This document shows, piece after piece, positions 595 through 63,976 of a DNA stretch of 64,000 nucleotides. The position numbers and the translations under genes were made by a program. Position 1 is the first letter of the stretch; every line of letters starts with the position of its first letter. Under the pieces are notes generated by a model. That model saw only the letters and a list, made by a program, of their open reading frames with translations. It searched no databases and was not told where the DNA came from. Origin of the DNA: Oscillospiraceae bacterium (lineage in GTDB: Bacteria > Bacillota > Clostridia > Oscillospirales > Acutalibacteraceae); contig JAITOD010000074.1 in the NCBI GenBank assembly GCA_031290105.1, positions 2,563-66,562 of the forward strand, given 5' to 3'.

Positions 595-4714
<4,120 letters not shown>

Positions 4715-38585: not shown

Positions 38586-38614
38586 TTGACAAATTTGCGA
38601 AAAGCGGTTATAAT
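38586..38614 (+). promoter_or_regulatory. sigma-A promoter TTGACA-17-TATAAT
   Basis: Exact consensus, 32 nt upstream of the small ORF. Confidence 0.6.
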
Positions 38615-38646
38615 GGTATCATACCAAAGAAAAGGAGGTGGAATAA

Positions 38647-39307: not shown

Positions 39308-39383
39308 CCGGGTGTGGCGCAGTTGGTAGCGCGCTTGACTGGGGGTCAAGAGGCCGTGGGTTCAAGTCCCGCCACTCGGACCA
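39308..39383 (+). tRNA. tRNA-Pro (anticodon GGG), CCA encoded
   Basis: Cloverleaf CCGGGTG/TG/GCGC-AGTTGGTA-GCGC/G/CTTGA-CTGGGGG-TCAAG/AGGCC/GTGGG-TTCAAGT-CCCGC/CACTCGG-A-CCA. G37 is present. Confidence 0.9.
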
Positions 39384-39478: not shown

Positions 39479-40012
39479 CTATCCCACCATCACTCCCTCT
39501 GCCACCCAAGCTCTCGAGAAATCCCGATCCCGAAACAGCGCCGCCAGCCCGCTGAGCTGCTTGAGCCGTAATAACTCGTCGGCGTCCATGCCGAAGTTGC
39601 GCATAATCCAGTCGTCGCCCATGCCTGCCTCAATAACATTCTGTACAATGCCCTGCATAAGCTCAATTGAGTGCATACCCCGCGCGCGGTTGTGCCTGAT
39701 TGTGCTGGCCATGCGGTCGCTGATGGGCTTGTCGATGACGGACACCGGCAAGCAAGCACCCTCGCGTTCGCGAATGCGTTTGCTCGTCAGCATTACCGTG
39801 TAGCGGTGGAATCCGTCCACAATTTCGTACTTGCCGCTCTCCTCAAGGTAGTAGCACACAATGGGCATGGTGTATCCGTCTTCCCAAATTGACTTCTCCA
39901 AAAGCTTCATTTCCGGTGGCGCAACGTGGTTTGGATTATAGGCGTTTGCTTGTATTTTTCCGATTGGCACACGCCGAATATCATAGACCGGACTTATAAA
40001 AGATCGCTCCAT
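39479..40012 (-). CDS. ParB-like nuclease domain protein (IbrB-like)
   Basis: ParB N-terminal motifs IVDGFHRY and RHNRARG. Overlaps the upstream gene by 19 nt. Confidence 0.75.
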   Translation of the reverse strand: MERSFISPVYDIRRVPIGKIQANAYNPNHVAPPEMKLLEKSIWEDGYTMPIVCYYLEESGKYEIVDGFHRYTVMLTSKRIREREGACLPVSVIDKPISDRMASTIRHNRARGMHSIELMQGIVQNVIEAGMGDDWIMRNFGMDADELLRLKQLSGLAALFRDRDFSRAWVAEGVMVG

Positions 40013-41280
40013 TTTTCAATAGCCGCCTTTCTTTTTTTGATTTCGGATTTTGTTTTCGCAAACCCCATGTACTTGCAAGTGTGGTCGTTTTTGAGTATGC
40101 ATACGCACATGCGCTTGTAGCTTGGCACTGATTTGAAGTCACTTATCTGCGGCATGTCGTCCGGATAATCGGCGAATCGCACAACGGCTTGACCATCATG
40201 CGCGCGTGCAACGGCGGTTTGGGCTTCACGTAGCTCACGCAAGGTTCGTTCGGACAAAACTCCGCCCTTTTCCCGCCAGAATTTTATAGAAACAGCGAGC
40301 TTGCGCAAATAATTTTGCCGTGCTTCATCCGGCAATGTTGATAGCAAAAACTCCATATATTCACGCCATGTGAAATGCGCAGGTTTTTGGATATTTCGCC
40401 AGCCCATTGCCGTGGTATTGCCGTAAATACCCGTAAAATTTACTCCATTGACGCGTGAAATCATGCGGCCCCAATTGTCGGGGTCAATTGCTTTGTAGTA
40501 TGCAAGGCTGCCTTTTGCGTAGTCTAAAAAAGGGCTTGCAACGCGCATTTGGCTAATGGTCATCCCAGCTTGATACATCAGGTCGTATAAAGAGTTATAG
40601 GTAAAACCAAATCGCGCATTCGCCGTCCAGATATCTTCTGTTCGCCAGTCGTAAATCGGGTGTCCAAGCGTGTATGCCGGCCGGTCAGTCAGCCAGCATA
40701 GCCCCCTGTGTTGGTTGACTTTTTTCGCGGAGGTGATAGCCGACAGCCGATTCAAGCTTTCGTCCGAGCGCACGCCGGTAAGACAGCATAATTTATTGCT
40801 ATGTTTTCCGGATAGCCATGCGCAAAAATTCTCCTGCACGTCATAATCCCATAAATCGCGGAAACTGAATTCGGCGGTATTTTCTGTAATGATATATTGA
40901 AAATCCGGCATTGAACGCACCCATAATTCTTGTTTTTCTCGCTCCCACGGAATCCAGTGGTCTTGAAACATTGACGTCGCACATGTCACTTTAATAGGCA
41001 AACAAAGCCAGTATTTGCCTACTTCATCGGGTAACGCCGCAAAGGCCTGCGTTACATAGTCCGTGGTCATTTGATACTGCGCCTCGTAGTCAATATGGTA
41101 TACAGACAGCTTATTTAAGCAACTATTTTCACTCGCATATTTCAAACAAAGATTCAGCAGCACGCCCGAATCTTTCCCGCCTGAAAATGCTACGAGCACG
41201 TTTTCAAACTCCGCGAATGCGTAAGCAATCCGTTCCATCGCCGCTTCATAAACATTTTCTGTTATAAAGATTTTACCCAT
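39994..41280 (-). CDS. PP-loop / phosphoadenosine-phosphosulfate reductase family protein with extended C-terminal domain (IbrA-like)
   Basis: PP-loop VLVAFSGGKDSGVLL. ~430 aa, consistent with a PAPS_reduct plus DUF3440-type architecture. Confidence 0.75.
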   Translation of the reverse strand: MGKIFITENVYEAAMERIAYAFAEFENVLVAFSGGKDSGVLLNLCLKYASENSCLNKLSVYHIDYEAQYQMTTDYVTQAFAALPDEVGKYWLCLPIKVTCATSMFQDHWIPWEREKQELWVRSMPDFQYIITENTAEFSFRDLWDYDVQENFCAWLSGKHSNKLCCLTGVRSDESLNRLSAITSAKKVNQHRGLCWLTDRPAYTLGHPIYDWRTEDIWTANARFGFTYNSLYDLMYQAGMTISQMRVASPFLDYAKGSLAYYKAIDPDNWGRMISRVNGVNFTGIYGNTTAMGWRNIQKPAHFTWREYMEFLLSTLPDEARQNYLRKLAVSIKFWREKGGVLSERTLRELREAQTAVARAHDGQAVVRFADYPDDMPQISDFKSVPSYKRMCVCILKNDHTCKYMGFAKTKSEIKKRKAAIEKWSDLL

Positions 41281-42902
41281 TTTATGCTTGCCTCCTTGCC
41301 CCTCAAATTTCGATTAATCTCCGCCAGCAGTCCGCCTTTTTTCTCAATATTCCGCACGAAGATTTCCTCCATGCCGCACTTGCAAAGAATGTCGGTGAAG
41401 TGCAGCTCGTCCGCAGCTTGCCCTGTGCGAAAAATTCGGTGTTCCGCGTGGATTTTTTGCGCGTAGTCAAAGGTCTGGTCGGCAAAAATTACGTGTGAGC
41501 AAAACTGCAGATTCAGCCCTTTCGCGCCCGTACCGTAAGTCAGCCAAAGCGCTTTTTCGTCATTTTCGCGAAAGTCTGCCAGCGTTTCATCGCGCTGTTT
41601 TCGGGTCTCGCTACCGGTGATTCGCGCCGCGCCCTCGGGTATTCCGTCCAAGTATTTCACAAAAACCAGCGCCTTGCCGGGTCGGCTCTCCAGTGCGGCG
41701 TTGACCGCCTCCGGCCGCCCGGCGCTCTTGGTGTAGCAGACCTGCAAGCGCGTGCACAGCTCCCAAAAGTCGATGTCGCTGTATTCCATCCGCGCAAGAA
41801 TTTCTTCCTTTATTTTCCTATACTCACTATCAAAATCGTTGTCGTATCGCAGTATTTCGTAGCTTTTTCGCACGTCCAGCACAAGGTCGCACTCGTAGCT
41901 GTAGGGCGCGATTAGACCCGTCAAGTGCTCAAGATTTTTGTAGCCCTTGATGTAGCGCCGCCCCTCTTCGCCGTCCCAGATGATGTAGTTGTGCGAAAAT
42001 TCGCGCCACTCCATGTCCAAAATTTGCGGCGAGAGAAACAAAATCTGGTTGTATAAATCCCGCGCGCCGCGGCTGATTGGCGTGCCGTTGAGTATGTACC
42101 GAAACGTGCTTTGCCGCCCGATTTCCTGCACTCGCGGCGTCCTCTTCTTGTTCCAATTTTTGATTGTCAGCGACTCGTCCACCACGCAGACTGCGCGCTT
42201 TCCCTCAAGCAAACGCAGGATTTTCAAGTACACGCGATCGCTCTGCGTCAGGCTCTCCACACCGTACGCGGCGACCTCCATATCGGGCCGCCACCGTTTC
42301 CGCTCCCTCTCAAAGTCGTCCAAAATTGCGCAGGGGCAGATGTACAGCACCAAATCCGCACCGCAATTTTCCAGCTTGTGGGCGCATAAATCCAGCGCGA
42401 CCTTCGTTTTGCCGCTCCCCATGCGCATGAAAAGTGCGCCGTAGTCAAGCGCCGCCAGCTTCGCGAAAGCAGCCCGCTGGTGAGCTTCCTGCGTCTGCGG
42501 GTCCTCCACTTCCGGCTCGTTGTAGACGTAGTTACCGTAGAGCGCCGCCCGCAGAATTTTCTGCGCCTTCAGCCAGCCCTTGGCCGTGCCCAGCGGCTCT
42601 TTTTTCTCGTCACCGACGGCGCGAAAAATCGCCAATTCTTTCATGTAATCGCACTCTAAAATCACCGCGTCCTTGGGTACAAGCGACGCTTTGAAAACCG
42701 GGATAGGCGTCCCAAGCGCGCAAAATCCGTTGAGCTTTCGCGGGTCAACGCCCGTCACGATTTTCGCCCAAGTGATATATCCGGTGCCGGACGGCTTGTA
42801 TATCACCGTGTCAAGCATGCTGTGGAGCCGCTCCACGCACTCGCGCGCCAGGTCGGACAGCTCCTGCACCGACAGCTCCGAAATGTCGAGACTTGCCACC
42901 AT
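41262..42902 (-). CDS. SNF2/DEAD-like superfamily 2 helicase
   Basis: Walker A MGSGKTK, motif II VVDESL, motif III LNGTP and a C-terminal helicase lobe (LTYGTGAKGLNLQ, RIFRTGQ). Confidence 0.8.
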   Translation of the reverse strand: MVASLDISELSVQELSDLARECVERLHSMLDTVIYKPSGTGYITWAKIVTGVDPRKLNGFCALGTPIPVFKASLVPKDAVILECDYMKELAIFRAVGDEKKEPLGTAKGWLKAQKILRAALYGNYVYNEPEVEDPQTQEAHQRAAFAKLAALDYGALFMRMGSGKTKVALDLCAHKLENCGADLVLYICPCAILDDFERERKRWRPDMEVAAYGVESLTQSDRVYLKILRLLEGKRAVCVVDESLTIKNWNKKRTPRVQEIGRQSTFRYILNGTPISRGARDLYNQILFLSPQILDMEWREFSHNYIIWDGEEGRRYIKGYKNLEHLTGLIAPYSYECDLVLDVRKSYEILRYDNDFDSEYRKIKEEILARMEYSDIDFWELCTRLQVCYTKSAGRPEAVNAALESRPGKALVFVKYLDGIPEGAARITGSETRKQRDETLADFRENDEKALWLTYGTGAKGLNLQFCSHVIFADQTFDYAQKIHAEHRIFRTGQAADELHFTDILCKCGMEEIFVRNIEKKGGLLAEINRNLRGKEASIKWVKSL

Positions 42903-42905
42903 TTT

Positions 42906-43736
42906 TCACCTCCCCAGCACAAAAATTTTTGAGATTCTGCTCTCTTTATATAGCAGCTTTTGCACGCGGTTGTACGTGTCCACGCCGACTATCGCCTCGT
43001 GCTCGCCGGGAAAAACCTGCCCGCTGTGGTAGCACCAGCCGGCGTACACAGCGTTGCGCAGGATTTTGTCAACCGCGCCGGGAATCATGTCGAACCCGCC
43101 GACCGTGCGGATGCCTTTATTTCGGCACCAGCTTGACAAGGCGACGCAGTCTTTCACGCGCAAATACTGCTCAAAAATCGTCCTGACCCGCTCCGCTTCC
43201 TCCGGCCGTATTACAAGGCTGCCGTCCCGGTGCCTGTATCCGAGTATATGCGAACATATGTGCTTGCCTTGAGCAACCCTCTCCAGCGACGCGAGCTTCA
43301 CATTTTCGGCGATGACCTCGCGCTCCCACTGAGCAATCACACCGAGGATGTAGAGCACCATGCGCCCCATCGGCGTGCCGAAGTCGAAGCTCTCCGAAAC
43401 GCTCTGGAGGGACACTTTGTAGGTGAGAAGCGTTTCGCAAATCGCGCACAAATCGCGTACGCTGCGAGTCAGGCGCGTCAGCTTCCAGATTAAAATCTTG
43501 TCGAATTTTTTCAATTTTGCGTCCGTGATTAGCCTCAGCATGGCGGGTCGGTGCGCCAAATCCTTCGCTGAAATCCCCTCGTCGCGGTATATTTCGACGA
43601 CTTCCCAGCCCTGCGCTGTGCAGAAGTCGAGCAGAGTTTTTTCTTGCGCGGCGAGTGAGTACCCCGAAAGCGCTTGCTCCGAGGTGCTCACTCGTATGTA
43701 AATTGCGATTCGCATGGCGGTCGTCACCGGGCGCAT
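42906..43736 (-). CDS. serine recombinase, short form (resolvase plus recombinase domains, no zinc-ribbon/coiled-coil region)
   Basis: Catalytic IYIRVSTSEQ. The recombinase domain ends ...NRVQKLLYKESRISKIFVLGR-stop. An alternative start is ATG 43715. Confidence 0.8.
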   Translation of the reverse strand: MRPVTTAMRIAIYIRVSTSEQALSGYSLAAQEKTLLDFCTAQGWEVVEIYRDEGISAKDLAHRPAMLRLITDAKLKKFDKILIWKLTRLTRSVRDLCAICETLLTYKVSLQSVSESFDFGTPMGRMVLYILGVIAQWEREVIAENVKLASLERVAQGKHICSHILGYRHRDGSLVIRPEEAERVRTIFEQYLRVKDCVALSSWCRNKGIRTVGGFDMIPGAVDKILRNAVYAGWCYHSGQVFPGEHEAIVGVDTYNRVQKLLYKESRISKIFVLGR

Positions 43737-44194
43737 CCCTCCAAAACCTCAGCACCCCAAATGTATGATGAGTAGTAGCAAAGCGCGTCATAGTCTTTCC
43801 CGTCGAGCAGTCTTAAGCCGCTCATCAGACTCTCGGCGGCACTGAGGATTCCGCGGGACCTTGCACGCCTGTCACTGTCGCTAATCTCGCGCTCGTGGTG
43901 TGCGTCGAAAGCCAAGCCGCGCATAGCTGAAAAAATTTCGTACAGCACTGACGGTACTTTCGCGTCTGATATTGCTTGCTCAGCAAAGGCGTGCGCTTCT
44001 TCTTCGGTGATTTTTTCGACTCCTTCCAGCCCGCCCTCATAGTCGGGAATCTGCTTTTTTGTGAAGCGGTCCGCAAGCACGGCTCTCGCTTTAAGCGCGT
44101 CTTGCGTCATGTATCCTTTGGAATAGTCGTATACTCTGCCGTCGGCGGTAGTTGCGATTTTGTGCTCGACCAGCTCAATAGAAAACTTTTTCAT
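43724..44194 (-). CDS. hypothetical protein (first gene of the recombinase operon)
   Basis: 156 aa. Its RBS and first codons lie inside IR-L. No motif recognised. Confidence 0.55.
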   Translation of the reverse strand: MKKFSIELVEHKIATTADGRVYDYSKGYMTQDALKARAVLADRFTKKQIPDYEGGLEGVEKITEEEAHAFAEQAISDAKVPSVLYEIFSAMRGLAFDAHHEREISDSDRRARSRGILSAAESLMSGLRLLDGKDYDALCYYSSYIWGAEVLEGCAR

Positions 44195-44327
44195 GATGAA
44201 ACCTCTTTCTTATGTGCGGGGCGTTGTGCCCCGGTTGATGAGTACAGCATACACTATCTATAGGTCTTTGTCAAGCACTAGAGCCAGCAAGATTAAAGCT
44301 TTGTAGGAATGTACAAAAATAACACTG
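44187..44327. repeat. IR-L: 141-bp arm of a large inverted repeat
   Basis: Matches the reverse complement of 45005-45144 with 4 substitutions and a 1-nt indel. Confidence 0.92.
44246..44274 (-). promoter_or_regulatory. outward promoter in IR-L: TTGACA-17-TATGCT
   Basis: Drives the 43724-44194 gene and its operon. The spacer contains CACTATCTATAGG. Confidence 0.55.
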
Positions 44328-44348
44328 CTGATAGTGCTATTTTGTCCA

Positions 44349-44377
44349 TTGATTTTTTTATCATAAAGTGATATAAT
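44349..44377 (+). promoter_or_regulatory. inward promoter TTGATT-17-TATAAT for RHH-like gene 1
   Basis: Hexamers at 44349-44354 and 44372-44377. Confidence 0.55.
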
Positions 44378-44401
44378 GGAGCAGAAAAGGAGGTGGCGTC
44401 T

Positions 44402-44593
44402 GTGCCGGTATCTGAAGCCAAGTCAAAAAATAACGCCAAGTGGGACAAAGAAAATATGATAAAGTTGTCAACCGCCGCGCGAAAAGAGGACGCGGAAGCT
44501 TTTCGCGCATGGGCCAAAAGCCAAGGCTTGAGCGTACACGCTGCACTTCTGGCATATGTCTTTGAGAAGATAGGAAAAAGCCGCCGGCAATAA
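44402..44593 (+). CDS. 63-aa ribbon-helix-helix-like DNA-binding protein, paralog 1
   Basis: GTG start 6 nt after AAGGAGGTG. Predicted strand-helix-helix pattern. ~55% identical to the 44733-44924 product. Confidence 0.6.
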   Translation: MPVSEAKSKNNAKWDKENMIKLSTAARKEDAEAFRAWAKSQGLSVHAALLAYVFEKIGKSRRQ

Positions 44594-44610
44594 AAAAACT
44601 GCCGTCCACT

Positions 44611-44646
44611 AAAAAGAGCACTAAGTCATAGCTTGGTGCTCTTTTT
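44611..44646. terminator. bidirectional terminator at the palindrome centre
   Basis: AAAAAGAGCAC-N14-GTGCTCTTTTT. Confidence 0.7.
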
Positions 44647-44732
44647 AAATTGGGATTACCCCCGCGCGTTTGGGGGCTTCGGTCGTATTTAAGGGTCACC
44701 CACGCAAGTGCGTGGTATTGGTTGGGATTGCG

Positions 44733-44924
44733 CTACTCGGCGGGAGTCTCCCCGATTTTTTCAAGGACGTACGCTAAAAAAACGGCGTGCACACTCATTC
44801 CGCGGCTCGCAGCCCATGCGCGAAAAGCTTCCGCGTAGTCTTTTCGTATGGAGCAAGATAGTGTGCTCATATTTTCTTTGTTCCATTTCGCGTCTGTCAA
44901 CTTTTTGGACGGCGTTTTCGGCAC
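44733..44924 (-). CDS. 63-aa ribbon-helix-helix-like DNA-binding protein, paralog 2
   Basis: GTG start after GGGGGTGAG. Shares AKW.KENM..LS..RK..AEAFRAWA...G.SVHA..LAYV.EKIG with paralog 1. Confidence 0.6.
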   Translation of the reverse strand: MPKTPSKKLTDAKWNKENMSTLSCSIRKDYAEAFRAWAASRGMSVHAVFLAYVLEKIGETPAE

Positions 44925-44950
44925 AAACTCACCCCCATAAATTCGACTTC

Positions 44951-44979
44951 ATTATACCATATCACGACATAAAAATCAA
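44951..44979 (-). promoter_or_regulatory. inward promoter TTGATT-17-TATAAT for RHH-like gene 2
   Basis: Mirror image of the 44349-44377 promoter. Confidence 0.55.
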
Positions 44980-45004
44980 CTATCCACAAAAACAACACTA
45001 TAGA

Positions 45005-45144
45005 CAGTGTTATTTTTGTACATTCCTACAAGGCTTAATCTTGCTGGCTCTAGTGCTTGACAAAGCCGTATAGATAGTGTATACTGTACTCATCAACCGG
45101 GGCACAACGCCCCGCACATAAGAAAGAGGTTTCATCATGAAAAA
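45005..45144. repeat. IR-R: 140-bp arm of the large inverted repeat
   Basis: Reverse complement of IR-L (~96% identity). Confidence 0.92.
45057..45085 (+). promoter_or_regulatory. outward promoter in IR-R: TTGACA-17-TATACT
   Basis: Drives the 45137-45334 gene. Confidence 0.55.
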
Positions 45145-45334
45145 CATTGAAAAAAGTGAGTCTTTAACCCGCGCCGCCGAACTTCTCCGGCAAGCAAAAT
45201 TTGTCTGCTCGCGCGTGATGGGCAATGTGAGTTACGACGAAGGGAAAAGCCCCCGTGCGGATTTTTCCGGAATCTTCTTTGTGCCCGAAGAGAGCGAGAA
45301 GCCCGGGCACATCACCGCTTGCGGCAGAGCTTGA
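45137..45334 (+). CDS. 65-aa hypothetical protein
   Basis: Uses the RBS and ATGAAAAA duplicated in IR-R. Followed by the 45357-45398 terminator. Confidence 0.45.
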   Translation: MKNIEKSESLTRAAELLRQAKFVCSRVMGNVSYDEGKSPRADFSGIFFVPEESEKPGHITACGRA

Positions 45335-45356: not shown

Positions 45357-45398
45357 AAAAACGGGCAATAACGCCGGCGTTATTGCCCGTTTTATTTT
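45357..45398. terminator. bidirectional terminator (36-nt perfect palindrome)
   Basis: AAAACGGGCAATAACGCC/GGCGTTATTGCCCGTTTT, flanked by A/T runs. Confidence 0.8.
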
Positions 45399-45460: not shown

Positions 45461-45670
45461 CTACGTTACCGCGTTCAACTCTTTAATTTTCAGCCATTCA
45501 GCTTTTTTAATCCGCGTCAGCCGCATTGCGTCGTGCCGAAAAATCTGTGTGTCGCAGCGGTACTCGTAGGTCTTGCCCTCGTGCTTGATGTACTCCGCCG
45601 TGTCCTTGTGCCGCCGTGCCGGAAATCCGCTGTAAACCGCATTGCTAACGCACCCGCTTGGTCTTGCCAT
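45461..45670 (-). CDS. 69-aa hypothetical protein
   Basis: AAGGAGG RBS. Promoter at 45724-45753. Its leader shares the conserved CAACCGGGG(G)CACAACGCC block. Confidence 0.5.
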   Translation of the reverse strand: MARPSGCVSNAVYSGFPARRHKDTAEYIKHEGKTYEYRCDTQIFRHDAMRLTRIKKAEWLKIKELNAVT

Positions 45671-45723
45671 AGTCTTGTCCTCCTTGATTTTCGGTTGGCG
45701 TTGTGCCCCCGGTTGATATACGT

Positions 45724-45753
45724 ATTATACACTATTTCCAGTGCCATTGTCAA
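45724..45753 (-). promoter_or_regulatory. promoter TTGACA-18-TATAAT (third copy of the IR promoter module)
   Basis: 45695-45755 is partly homologous to IR-L. Confidence 0.55.
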
Positions 45754-45861
45754 GCCCTATAGATGGTGTTTTAGAAAGTTTGTCGGAGTGTACAAAGCTT
45801 CACTATCTATAGGGCGTATTTTGTGTTGGTTATAGTCATAAAAAATTCGCATTCACAAACA

Positions 45862-45893
45862 CAAAAAAAGGGGGGAGTGCACACGCTCCCCCA
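45862..45893 (-). terminator. rho-independent terminator ending the late operon
   Basis: GGGGGAG-N8-CTCCCCC, followed on the minus strand by T7. Confidence 0.7.
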
Positions 45894-62536: not shown

Positions 62537-63976
62537 TCAATCCACCTCCTCTAATAGCTCTAGTATAACATATATGAACTCATTTTGCAAGCTTATGCCC
62601 TTAACTTTAAAACTGCGGCCGCGCTGAAGTAAAACTTCAACTTGTCCAAACATCGGTGAACTTGCAACTCCGTTCCATGTGCCATCTTTATTTGTTTCGC
62701 CATATGCGCTAAAAGGTTCCATGTAAATTGTTTTTGAGCTTTTTGGTGCCAAAACATCATAAAGAATACGCAGCCCAGTATCACCTGCCGAAGCTTCTGA
62801 GAATGCAATAGCAACATCTTTTGACGTTGCCGTTGAAAAGAATGCAGAATCGCTTACCTTTTTGCCCGCAAACAATTTATTGAGTTGCTCGACATTTTCC
62901 AGCGTGATTTTGCTTGCTTCTATGCCAAGCAGCCCCGCAAGGCCCTTCTCATCAGAACCTCTAAACAGCACTGTGTCTCTCGGCAAGCCCGAGGATTTTT
63001 CAATCGCGCGGGTCAAATCAGCAATCATGTCGCCAATGCCTTCATGGTCAAAAGGTACTTTCCCAACGCCGACAAACGTATTCCAGTTGTCAAGGAAGCC
63101 CCTAAGCGGTCTGTTGAAAGCCCCCGAGCCTTGCGTATATCTAAACGCCGCCGCTTTTTCTGCCGCTGTCAGCTTAGACCATAGTTCTTCTGTCTGCGGC
63201 CGCAATTCAGCGTCAGCTGTTTCTTTATTAGTATATGCGGCATAGAGCTTATGTTTCGGGCTTGGCTCCGGCTCTTTAGGAACCTCAAAAGCCGGGTCTG
63301 TTTCATGATACTTGTTTCGATAGTCCAGTGCGGCACGTTGACGCGCTCTCAGGTTGGTTCCTGTCAAAGTATTCTCATCTATCACGGCTGGTTCCATTAG
63401 GCAGTGGCAGTAAATGCTTTCCTCCGGCGGAAGCGTAGGGTCAACCGGGTATAGGGGATAGTGCATAGTTCCCTTTTTCCCCGGCAGCTCGAACCGCTCC
63501 GCTTTGGGCACAACCTGGTTGTTTATTGCAATGTGATTCTCGCGCGGCGTGGTTCGGTATCCTGAGGTGTGCCGCCAACGCTTCGCGTCATGGCTTGGGT
63601 CTTGCATCAACGCTTCAAACGCGCCTATGTTGTGCGCTCGCATCATCTCGGTCAGCGCGGCGCGTTGGGCGCGATAGTAAGAATCGCGAATTCCGCTTTC
63701 CTCAAATTGCTGTGCCAGCCAGTCAATGCTTTTCCCTCCCGTTGTAGCTTTGTCAAGCAAGTCCTGCATCTTGTCGTAGCTGTCAAGCTTCATGAGTTCA
63801 CCAAGCTTTGGCGACCAGCGTTCAGCCCATCTCAGCGTTTCAAGCGAGATTTCCCCCGTAAGCAGCTCCGGATTAAGCTTTTTCAGGTGCTCGTCCACTA
63901 TTTTCGGCAATGCTGAATCAAGCATTTTCTTTTCTGCTTGCGCAATGCGCTCTGCAGTGTCGTCAATAATCGGCAA
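62537..63976 (-). CDS. head morphogenesis protein (SPP1 gp7 / Mu F family) fused to a C-terminal ADP-ribosyltransferase domain; N-terminus may lie beyond the window
   Basis: gp7 core (NHIAINNQVVP...YCHCLMEP) followed by R-S-E ART motifs LFRG, FFSTATS and QVEVLL. The frame stays open to position 64000. Confidence 0.7.
   Translation of the reverse strand: MPIIDDTAERIAQAEKKMLDSALPKIVDEHLKKLNPELLTGEISLETLRWAERWSPKLGELMKLDSYDKMQDLLDKATTGGKSIDWLAQQFEESGIRDSYYRAQRAALTEMMRAHNIGAFEALMQDPSHDAKRWRHTSGYRTTPRENHIAINNQVVPKAERFELPGKKGTMHYPLYPVDPTLPPEESIYCHCLMEPAVIDENTLTGTNLRARQRAALDYRNKYHETDPAFEVPKEPEPSPKHKLYAAYTNKETADAELRPQTEELWSKLTAAEKAAAFRYTQGSGAFNRPLRGFLDNWNTFVGVGKVPFDHEGIGDMIADLTRAIEKSSGLPRDTVLFRGSDEKGLAGLLGIEASKITLENVEQLNKLFAGKKVSDSAFFSTATSKDVAIAFSEASAGDTGLRILYDVLAPKSSKTIYMEPFSAYGETNKDGTWNGVASSPMFGQVEVLLQRGRSFKVKGISLQNEFIYVILELLEEVD

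Follow-up and report, generated by a model that had tools for sequence, protein, structure and literature searches.

In phage P22, the immI region lies outside the main immunity locus, near the tail genes, and encodes the paralogous ribbon-helix-helix (RHH) repressors Arc and Mnt, which act on closely spaced promoters through operators in the promoter core. The controlled product there is an antirepressor, and mnt and arc-ant diverge from a single pair of overlapping promoters. In the inc18 plasmids (pSM19035, omega-epsilon-zeta), several promoters are repressed by the small RHH protein omega, which recognises short boxes repeated in arrays, either directly or inverted. Here we compare these systems with a locus in a 64-kb stretch of DNA (hereafter, the window) from the metagenome-assembled genome of an Oscillospiraceae bacterium, a single sequence in which two genes for 63-residue RHH-like proteins (RHH-A and RHH-B) lie inside a quasi-palindrome whose outer arms (44187-44327 and 45005-45144) each carry an outward promoter region. 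A divergent-promoter cassette, probably under RHH regulation, has been duplicated here as a mirror image in one lineage; its components are ordinary, their arrangement is unusual, and a single sequence is known. On balance, and with modest confidence, we lean toward the explanation that this is a control region in the accessory part of a prophage, built from a mirror-duplicated promoter cassette that is repressed by the RHH proteins and whose arms have recently been homogenised.

The anatomy of the repeat was defined by global alignment of positions 44187-44665 with the reverse complement of 44666-45144. The outer arms (44187-44327 against 45144-45005) are identical in 136 of 141 columns (96.5%) and differ by substitutions at 44248, 44262, 44264 and 44300 and by a 1-nt indel at 44295. 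Three of the four substitutions cluster in or beside the outward -10 hexamer and the candidate operator box that we call O1. On the outside, identity extends 8 nt into the flanking open reading frames (ORFs), through ATGAAAAA; on the inside it falls abruptly at 44328 to about 60%, with indels, and the interior is a diverged mirror image at roughly that level of identity. An independent repeat search recovered the arms as 115 nt at 96%, followed further in by segments of 48 nt at 88%, 38 nt at 74% and 142 nt at 72%. An earlier note on this DNA, made by a model from the letters alone, had described arms with four substitutions and one indel, a more diverged homology continuing inward, and a substitution in the outward -10 (TATGCT on the left, TATACT on the right); the alignment agrees on all three points and adds the exact positions. 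The window takes in 26 kb of the prophage, and this stretch has no sizeable inverted repeat other than the quasi-palindrome.

The two small ORFs inside the repeat are genuine genes of an unnamed RHH family. RHH-A and RHH-B are convergent, both begin with GTG CCG, and their products are 57% identical over a global alignment and 60% over a local one (E 2e-26), close to the figure of about 55% given earlier. By codon position, identity between the genes is 41, 47 and 29 of 60, with the second position the most conserved and the third the least; nonsynonymous divergence (dN) is 0.28, and synonymous divergence (dS) is saturated. Thus, the duplication is old, and both copies are under purifying selection. 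The two proteins are also reciprocal best matches, at 75 bits compared with at most 68 bits for any other collected member of the family, which suggests, on sequence similarity, that the duplication took place within this phage lineage. These are the only two copies of the family in the window.

Relatives are numerous. An exhaustive HMMER search with a five-sequence profile collected 773 protein clusters at E<=1e-3, and loci encoding family members number at least 96 in IMG/VR and 25 in GTDB genomes, mostly of Oscillospiraceae and Ruminococcaceae. When compared with RHH proteins of solved structure, a 71-member profile matched AvtR (8e-6), the RHH domain of PutA (8e-5), ParG (2e-4) and Arc (1e-3 to 3e-2), as well as 56B and, weakly, CopG and Mnt. 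The alignments to RHH proteins span positions 20-62, the strand-helix-helix part. Individual family members matched the Pfam families ParG (8 members), RHH_1 (7), DUF6290 (7) and RHH_10 (6), and weak Pfam matches to ParD and DUF6290 also occur in the family. The AlphaFold2 (AF2) monomer model (predicted local distance difference test score, pLDDT, 88) has an N-terminal helix (residues 5-18), an extended segment (19-27) and two further helices (28-40 and 45-57). Judged by profile similarity together with this modelled strand-helix-helix fold, the family belongs to the RHH (MetJ/Arc/CopG) superfamily; the family profile, the Pfam matches of its members and the AF2 fold all bear out the RHH-like label first attached to the two genes. 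Dimers of this superfamily characteristically place an antiparallel beta-ribbon in the DNA major groove at repeated sub-sites of an operator, for which the boxes described below are candidates. The strand positions predicted to face DNA are the variable ones in the family alignment, and RHH-A and RHH-B differ there (K21/T21 and A25/S25). Both genes are monocistronic and run into terminator hairpins, with no toxin gene downstream.

Each RHH gene also contains a palindrome, GCGCGAAAAG-N10-CTTTTCGCGC in RHH-A (44477-44517) and CGAAAAG..CTTTTCG in RHH-B (44818-44846), where the DNA codes for the conserved RK..AEAFR motif. Over about 28 nt the two genes match exactly, whereas elsewhere they are 65% identical. 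The intragenic palindrome was considered as an RNA element and set aside, since it folds no better than shuffled sequence (z -1.2 and -0.25).

Promoters were predicted as matches to a consensus pattern. The scan found 8 promoter-like sites in 2.8 kb, compared with 2.8 +/- 1.5 in shuffles, and these include, in each half of the repeat, a putative outward promoter (P_out-L and P_out-R) back to back with a putative inward promoter that would serve the RHH gene. Transcription starts are predicted at about 44239 (minus), 44384 (plus), 44944 (minus), 45092 (plus) and, for the third arm copy described below, 45717 (minus). In the inward promoters, the hexamers and the spacer length are kept within a stretch that is otherwise about 60% identical between the halves. 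Both predicted outward transcripts open with the same GC hairpin. Since 5'-terminal stem-loops have a known effect on transcripts in Firmicutes, this hairpin probably stabilises both transcripts, by analogy. Between the convergent RHH genes lies a bidirectional intrinsic terminator, about 37 nt off the geometric center of the quasi-palindrome, whose hairpin folds with z scores of -3.0 and -3.5. The inward TTGATT-17-TATAAT promoters of both halves, the outward promoter with its leader hairpin (CGGGGC-ACAAC-GCCCCG), and the bidirectional central terminator had all been proposed before; the scan and the folding calculations recovered each of them, the terminator with a 17-bp stem and A/T tracts.

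A feature absent from the earlier note is a third copy of the arm, on the minus strand beyond the right end of the quasi-palindrome and about 60% identical to either arm. This unit has its own predicted promoter, a degraded leader hairpin, an RBS (ribosome-binding site) and a 69-aa ORF (p69), with no RHH gene alongside. Its homology to the arms ends near the position of the inward -35, and the terminator of the tail (late) operon follows. The 65-aa ORF downstream of P_out-R (p65) and p69 are convergent and have a bidirectional terminator in common. In total, the region holds three outward promoter cassettes and two regulators. Neither p65 nor p69, nor the first gene downstream of P_out-L (p156), has a match in Pfam, PHROG, NCBIfam or PADLOC.

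The three units have three motifs in common that are otherwise almost absent from the 64-kb window. Five of the six window matches to CACTATCTATAG fall in this region, where 1.0 would be expected by chance, and ATAGTG occurs at 4.3 per kb in the region and at 0.29 per kb elsewhere. Likewise, the region holds four of the six window matches to CTATAG and three of the four to TGTACAAA. The arrangement of these motifs is regular: the ATAGTG half of the CACT-N4-ATAGTG box (CACTATCTATAG) touches the -10 of every outward promoter, a second CACT..ATAGTG box lies about 72 bp upstream, beside the inward -35 hexamer, and between both boxes stands the palindrome TTTGTA-N6-TACAAA, which is kept in all three units. 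No candidate boxes were found elsewhere in the visible 25 kb of the prophage. The loci with the closest relatives of the RHH pair (L081 and L082) carry three copies of a box of about 12 nt upstream of the RHH gene, of a sequence different from that of the window boxes; from sequence, these arrays would fit a family of operator-array binders with variable specificity.

The third unit provides an internal control for the similarity of the arms. Although the box motifs, the promoter hexamers and some of the leader persist in it, its identity to either arm is only about 60%, a level also seen when the inner promoter region of the left unit is compared with that of the right. Constraint alone does not account for an arm identity of 96.5% beside coding sequence whose synonymous sites are saturated, and recent homogenisation is therefore called for: the two inverted copies have probably undergone gene conversion or recombined not long ago. 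The likely event is the copying of one outward cassette onto the other. The high-identity tract coincides exactly with the outward expression signals, from the third codon of the flanking ORF to the inner box. Homogenisation and selection on the arms had been offered as alternatives at the outset; with the third unit as a control, homogenisation stands, and selection alone is insufficient.

How might such a region work? The basic unit would be a monocistronic RHH gene on a TG-extended promoter, paired divergently with a strong outward promoter. The outward transcript would open with the GC hairpin, an RBS and ATGAAAAA. Inverted duplication of this unit within the phage lineage, long enough ago for synonymous sites to become saturated, would have produced the convergent RHH paralogs split by terminators, with a third copy of the outward promoter surviving without a regulator. 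We propose that each of the three outward promoters is bound by RHH dimers-of-dimers at the CACT..ATAGTG box touching its -10. The TTTGTA-N6-TACAAA palindrome and the upstream box are probably bound too and may add cooperative binding. A small regulon of three transcription units would thereby be repressed: the p156-recombinase-SNF2-IbrA-IbrB operon, p65 and p69. Since the boxes of the two arms hardly differ, the promoters on the left and right would be co-regulated and not separately controlled, while the differences between the paralogs (at residues 21 and 25, and in their own promoter regions) would permit different inputs. The locus had initially been described as a symmetric double switch, in which two paralogous repressors control the recombinase/SNF2/IbrAB operon on one side and a 65-aa gene on the other. 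The RHH genes are indeed real and P_out-L does head the operon, but separate control of the two sides is overstated, because arms that are near-identical in their candidate operators make control by each paralog separately difficult, and a third promoter belongs to the set.

Several observations weigh against an RHH-repressed regulon. Taken alone, RHH-A and RHH-B each score below every Pfam RHH gathering score, and the top Foldseek matches of the model (Arc, VapB12, PutA and ParD, with template modelling (TM) scores, relative to the target, of 0.6-0.8) have E>0.5, which for a very small protein is not significant. The three units are homologous, and their common boxes could come from descent and not from function. 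No box overlaps the core of an inward promoter, and autoregulation is not evident. The repeat anatomy, the RHH family and fold, purifying selection, operon packing and motif distribution are observed; promoter activity, the pairing of proteins with boxes, repression, and conversion as the cause of homogenisation are inferred. The element is a singleton: relatives of the arms, p156, p65 and p69 were found in none of the collections searched (GenBank phages, IMG/VR, JGI metagenomes, PLSDB and protein collections), so no part of the proposal draws support from independent conservation. Finally, the closest relatives of the RHH pair adjoin kinases of the Zeta_toxin family, pointing to a different role for the RHH family: in L082 (616-1379) the RHH gene is directly adjacent to the kinase gene in an omega/zeta-like arrangement, and in L081 (6001-7789) DUF4160 and DUF2442 genes stand between the two. 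A further locus, L092, is likewise listed among the RHH relatives beside such kinases.

These neighborhoods feed the most serious alternative, which we regard as fairly unlikely. Here the arms would be a portable outward-promoter cassette answering to another factor (the phage master repressor, for example, or a late activator or host protein), and the RHH proteins would regulate only themselves, be orphan omega- or antitoxin-like proteins, or act outside the window. Such an account would suit the third arm copy, which has no adjacent regulator, and the high-identity tract, which leaves out the RHH genes and their promoters, as well as the nearest relatives in zeta-toxin-type or DUF4160/DUF2442 modules. 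Against it, the boxes are not a phage-wide operator set, at least within the window; both RHH genes are monocistronic, end at terminators and have no toxin gene behind them; and a regulator divergent from its target, as here, is the commonest layout for local repressors. Two other explanations turn on the repeat itself. One, which we consider improbable, is that the segment is inverted by the adjacent serine recombinase in the manner of Mu gin and the G segment, so that the SNF2-IbrAB operon and p65 would trade their facing RHH paralog and -10 variant (TATGCT or TATACT). As the only sizeable inverted repeat in the visible prophage, it does lie 450 bp from the recombinase gene, between that gene and the tail-fibre genes. 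The order of tail fibre, inverted-repeat segment, recombinase, DNA-modification-like genes and prophage end parallels the Mu order S/U-G-gin-mom, and three of the four arm substitutions are in or beside the -10 and O1. However, the segment is symmetric. Since promoter, leader, RBS and start codon are alike at its two ends, a flip would have next to no effect, exchanging only the -10 variant and the neighboring paralog. The recombinase is not of the Hin/Gin type (Resolvase plus PF07508; for the Mpi invertase model it scores 41.9 bits, with a cutoff of 272), and relatives of 262-296 aa in other prophages have no comparable inverted repeats nearby. A single orientation is seen, in one full assembly, while a second assembly breaks at the repeat, and look-ups of the exact products RHH-A, RHH-B and p65 for orientation variants were empty. 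At least as improbable, in our view, is a version in which the quasi-palindrome (0.7-1.0 kb) is flipped or continually converted through its arms by the short recombinase, giving phase-variable control of SNF2-IbrA-IbrB; this would be a Mu gin/G-type arrangement put to use for two repressor paralogs in place of tail-fibre ends. Of the inversion or gene conversion first suggested for the arms, then, conversion is retained in the homogenised arms, whereas a functional switch is disfavored by the symmetric anatomy and the non-invertase recombinase; occasional RecA-dependent inversion between the 141-bp repeats is plausible alongside conversion. That the repeat arose in assembly, or is a recent, neutral and functionless rearrangement, is highly improbable. 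The sequence is a metagenome-assembled singleton, and short-read assemblers break or mis-join at such repeats. Yet the interior is a diverged mirror image encoding two different proteins under purifying selection, and promoter hexamers, spacer length and GTG starts are kept within 60%-identical sequence. In addition, an independent Logan assembly (contig SRR14710898_1106597, L119) matches window positions 40261-44216 across the left junction at 3956 of 3956 nt (100% identity). Its end falls 30 nt inside the left arm, in line with the k-1 overlap at the branch point of a genuine repeat, and is uninformative on orientation.

The region had no blastn match among GenBank phages. Arm patterns gave 0 matches in IMG/VR, and a third pattern gave 22, with a common stretch of only 21 nt; in one metagenome scan, the arm pattern matched 13 times with no further similarity, which marks these as chance matches. 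Among 5.8 billion proteins, p156 matched only itself, and a close search with RHH-A returned itself and three proteins at about 50% identity. By tblastn, p65, p69 and RHH-A had no match in phages and plasmids. The earlier note had proposed looking for the same mirrored architecture in related prophages; the convergent twins were found in none of 105 loci bearing an RHH-family member. The sole other locus with two copies (L103, 5786-6177, Ruminococcus albus AR67) carries a tandem, same-strand pair separated by about 57 nt.

Table 1. Features of the quasi-palindrome and its surroundings (window positions)
Feature	Position	Strand	Description
Left arm	44187..44327		Minus-strand content: first 8 nt of p156, RBS, 5'-UTR (5'-untranslated region) hairpin, outward promoter, central palindrome, half of box O2
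Right arm	45005..45144		Plus strand, same content as left arm; ends 8 nt into p65
RHH-A gene	44402..44593	+	63 aa; GTG start 8 nt past GGAGG
RHH-B gene	44733..44924	-	63 aa; GTG start
P_out-L (predicted)	44246..44274	-	TTGACA-17-TATGCT, 10/12
P_out-R (predicted)	45057..45085	+	TTGACA-17-TATACT, 11/12
Inward promoter of RHH-A (predicted)	44349..44377	+	TTGATT-17-TATAAT, TG extension
Inward promoter of RHH-B (predicted)	44951..44979	-	TTGATT-17-TATAAT, TG extension
Leader hairpin, p156 operon transcript	44217..44233	-	CGGGGC-ACAAC-GCCCCG; about -13 kcal/mol, z -2.6; about 5 nt from predicted transcription start
Leader hairpin, p65 transcript	45098..45114	+	Identical to the p156 leader hairpin; z -2.8
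Bidirectional intrinsic terminator	44610..44647		17-bp stem, A/T tracts both sides
Further GC hairpins after central terminator	44661-44679, 44700-44715		
Candidate operator box O1-L	44252..44263		CACTATCTATAG; in P_out-L spacer, touching -10 hexamer
Candidate box O1-R	45068..45079	-	CACTATCTATAC; in P_out-R spacer
Palindrome, left unit	44300..44317		TTTGTA-N6-TACAAA; between divergent promoters
Palindrome, right unit	45015..45032		1 mismatch
Candidate box O2-L	44323..44336		CACTGCTGATAGTG; inner arm edge, about 13 nt upstream of inward -35
Candidate box O2-R	44996..45009	-	CACTGTCTATAGTG
Third arm copy	45660-45830	-	
Third-unit promoter (predicted)	45753..45724	-	TTGACA-18-TATAAT
Third-unit palindrome	45779-45796		
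Third-unit boxes	45730-45743, 45757-45768, 45801-45814		
p65	45137..45334	+	65-aa ORF downstream of P_out-R
p69	45461..45670	-	69-aa ORF downstream of third promoter
p65/p69 common bidirectional terminator	45358..45393		Perfect 18+18 nt; z -4.1
Terminator of tail (late) operon	45871-45892		
Five-gene operon downstream of P_out-L	39479..44194	-	p156-recombinase-SNF2-IbrA-IbrB
p156			Operon product; ORFan
Serine recombinase	42906-43736	-	Operon product; 276 aa
SNF2			Operon product; helicase
IbrA-like			Operon product; PAPS_reduct + DUF3440
IbrB-like			Operon product; ParB_N
tRNA-Pro	39308-39383		

The five genes of the left operon overlap or lie 3 nt apart, and this tight packing behind P_out-L supports the suggestion, already made in the first reading, that an outward promoter precedes the recombinase/SNF2/IbrAB operon. 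The recombinase has Resolvase and PF07508 Recombinase domains without a zinc-ribbon or coiled-coil part, and its best NCBIfam matches are the N-terminal parts of CcrC and CcrB. It belongs to a large family (536 proteins at E<=1e-20), for which 276 aa is a natural length, the best 120 matches all being 262-296 aa long. In prophages, its relatives have tyrosine integrases and lysins as neighbors. A search around the homologous short recombinases of other prophages revealed no consistent inverted repeats, and the recombinase search returned no close viral locus. At three loci (L123-L125, 11600-13650), relatives lie a few kb from a reverse transcriptase (RVT_1) gene and an RNase H gene, near lysis and tail genes, a neighborhood that could be a diversity-generating retroelement.

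The remaining genes of the operon, SNF2-IbrA-IbrB (39479-42902, minus strand), form a conserved phage module: among 80 IMG/VR loci with IbrA relatives, SNF2 lies just upstream in 63 and IbrB downstream in 79. None of the SNF2-IbrA-IbrB loci examined contains the recombinase, p156 or the RHH family, and this window alone unites the trio with a serine recombinase and an ORFan in a single operon. Membership of the operon in a defence system was considered and rejected, as PADLOC gave only weak helicase and PAPS-reductase similarities (DndC, BrxP, DrmD and ZorD).

A minus-strand run from 64 kb down to 46.3 kb encodes head-morphogenesis, capsid, sheath, tape measure, baseplate and tail fibre proteins, and a tRNA-Pro gene lies on the other side of the region. 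Thus, 39.4-45.9 kb belongs to a contractile-tailed prophage, whose accessory ('moron') end it forms; it is flanked by the tail-fibre gene on one side and by the prophage end at tRNA-Pro on the other. Tandem integration of two elements at the tRNA is unsupported, as the 3' end and flank of the tRNA are not repeated within the window. A transposon or miniature inverted-repeat transposable element (MITE) was also rejected: the arm ends have no target-site duplication, there is no transposase, and the start codons of the flanking genes lie inside the arms. Known RNA families gave only sub-threshold matches, on the terminator. Just beyond the prophage end, positions 38609-38641 (TATAATGGTATCATACCAAAGAAAAGGAGGTGG) are 73% identical over 33 nt to the part of the RHH-A promoter region that runs from the -10 to the RBS, maybe by chance. 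In the head-morphogenesis protein (SPP1 gp7 / Mu F-like; 62537-63976, minus strand), the C-terminal region matches the ADP-ribosyltransferase families phrog_16625 and phrog_3895.

If the repressor regulon is correct, the prophage would have wired several independently acquired accessory genes into one small regulon, and promoter cassettes within one genome would evolve in concert while their regulators diverge. It would also give a regulatory handle on the SNF2-IbrA-IbrB trio, which is conserved in many phages. All components are of a familiar kind, the element is a single metagenomic sequence, and it holds no major surprise.

How does the region compare with described systems? Serine-invertase switches (the Mu Gin/G segment, the P1 Cin/C segment and Salmonella Hin) and gut invertons are alike in having inverted repeats beside serine recombinase and tail-fibre genes, and P1 also has long inverted repeats. 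They differ in that the arms here are 141 bp long, compared with classical sites of 26-34 bp, and the enclosed content is symmetric and without tail-fibre coding parts. Moreover, an invertase of this type has a resolvase catalytic domain and a C-terminal helix-turn-helix in about 190 aa, whereas the window recombinase has 276 aa with Resolvase and PF07508. RHH antitoxins (ParD, RelB/DinJ and VapB-type) are likewise small RHH proteins, and relatives of the window family do occur in toxin-antitoxin-like operons; the window genes differ in having no co-transcribed toxin, and 63 aa leaves no C-terminal neutralising extension. A toxin-antitoxin pair was thus rejected, with no toxin gene present, though close relatives adjoin Zeta_toxin kinases. 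P22 immI likewise combines two small RHH paralogs, a position near tail genes and operators in the promoter core, the last being candidates from sequence in the window; Arc and Mnt are among the PDB matches of the family profile, and Arc tops the structure search. Unlike in immI, the RHH genes here are convergent, each with its own divergent promoter pair, no Ant homologue is present in the window, and the outer promoter cassettes are near-identical inverted repeats. The omega regulon resembles the window family in that the closest relatives immediately precede Zeta_toxin kinases and are themselves preceded by three repeated boxes. It differs in that neither Omega_Repress nor omega structures are among the family matches, no zeta or epsilon gene is present here, and the boxes are 12-14 bp long and not heptads. 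By analogy, then, the element appears to work most like P22 immI and the omega regulon, while being a member of neither.

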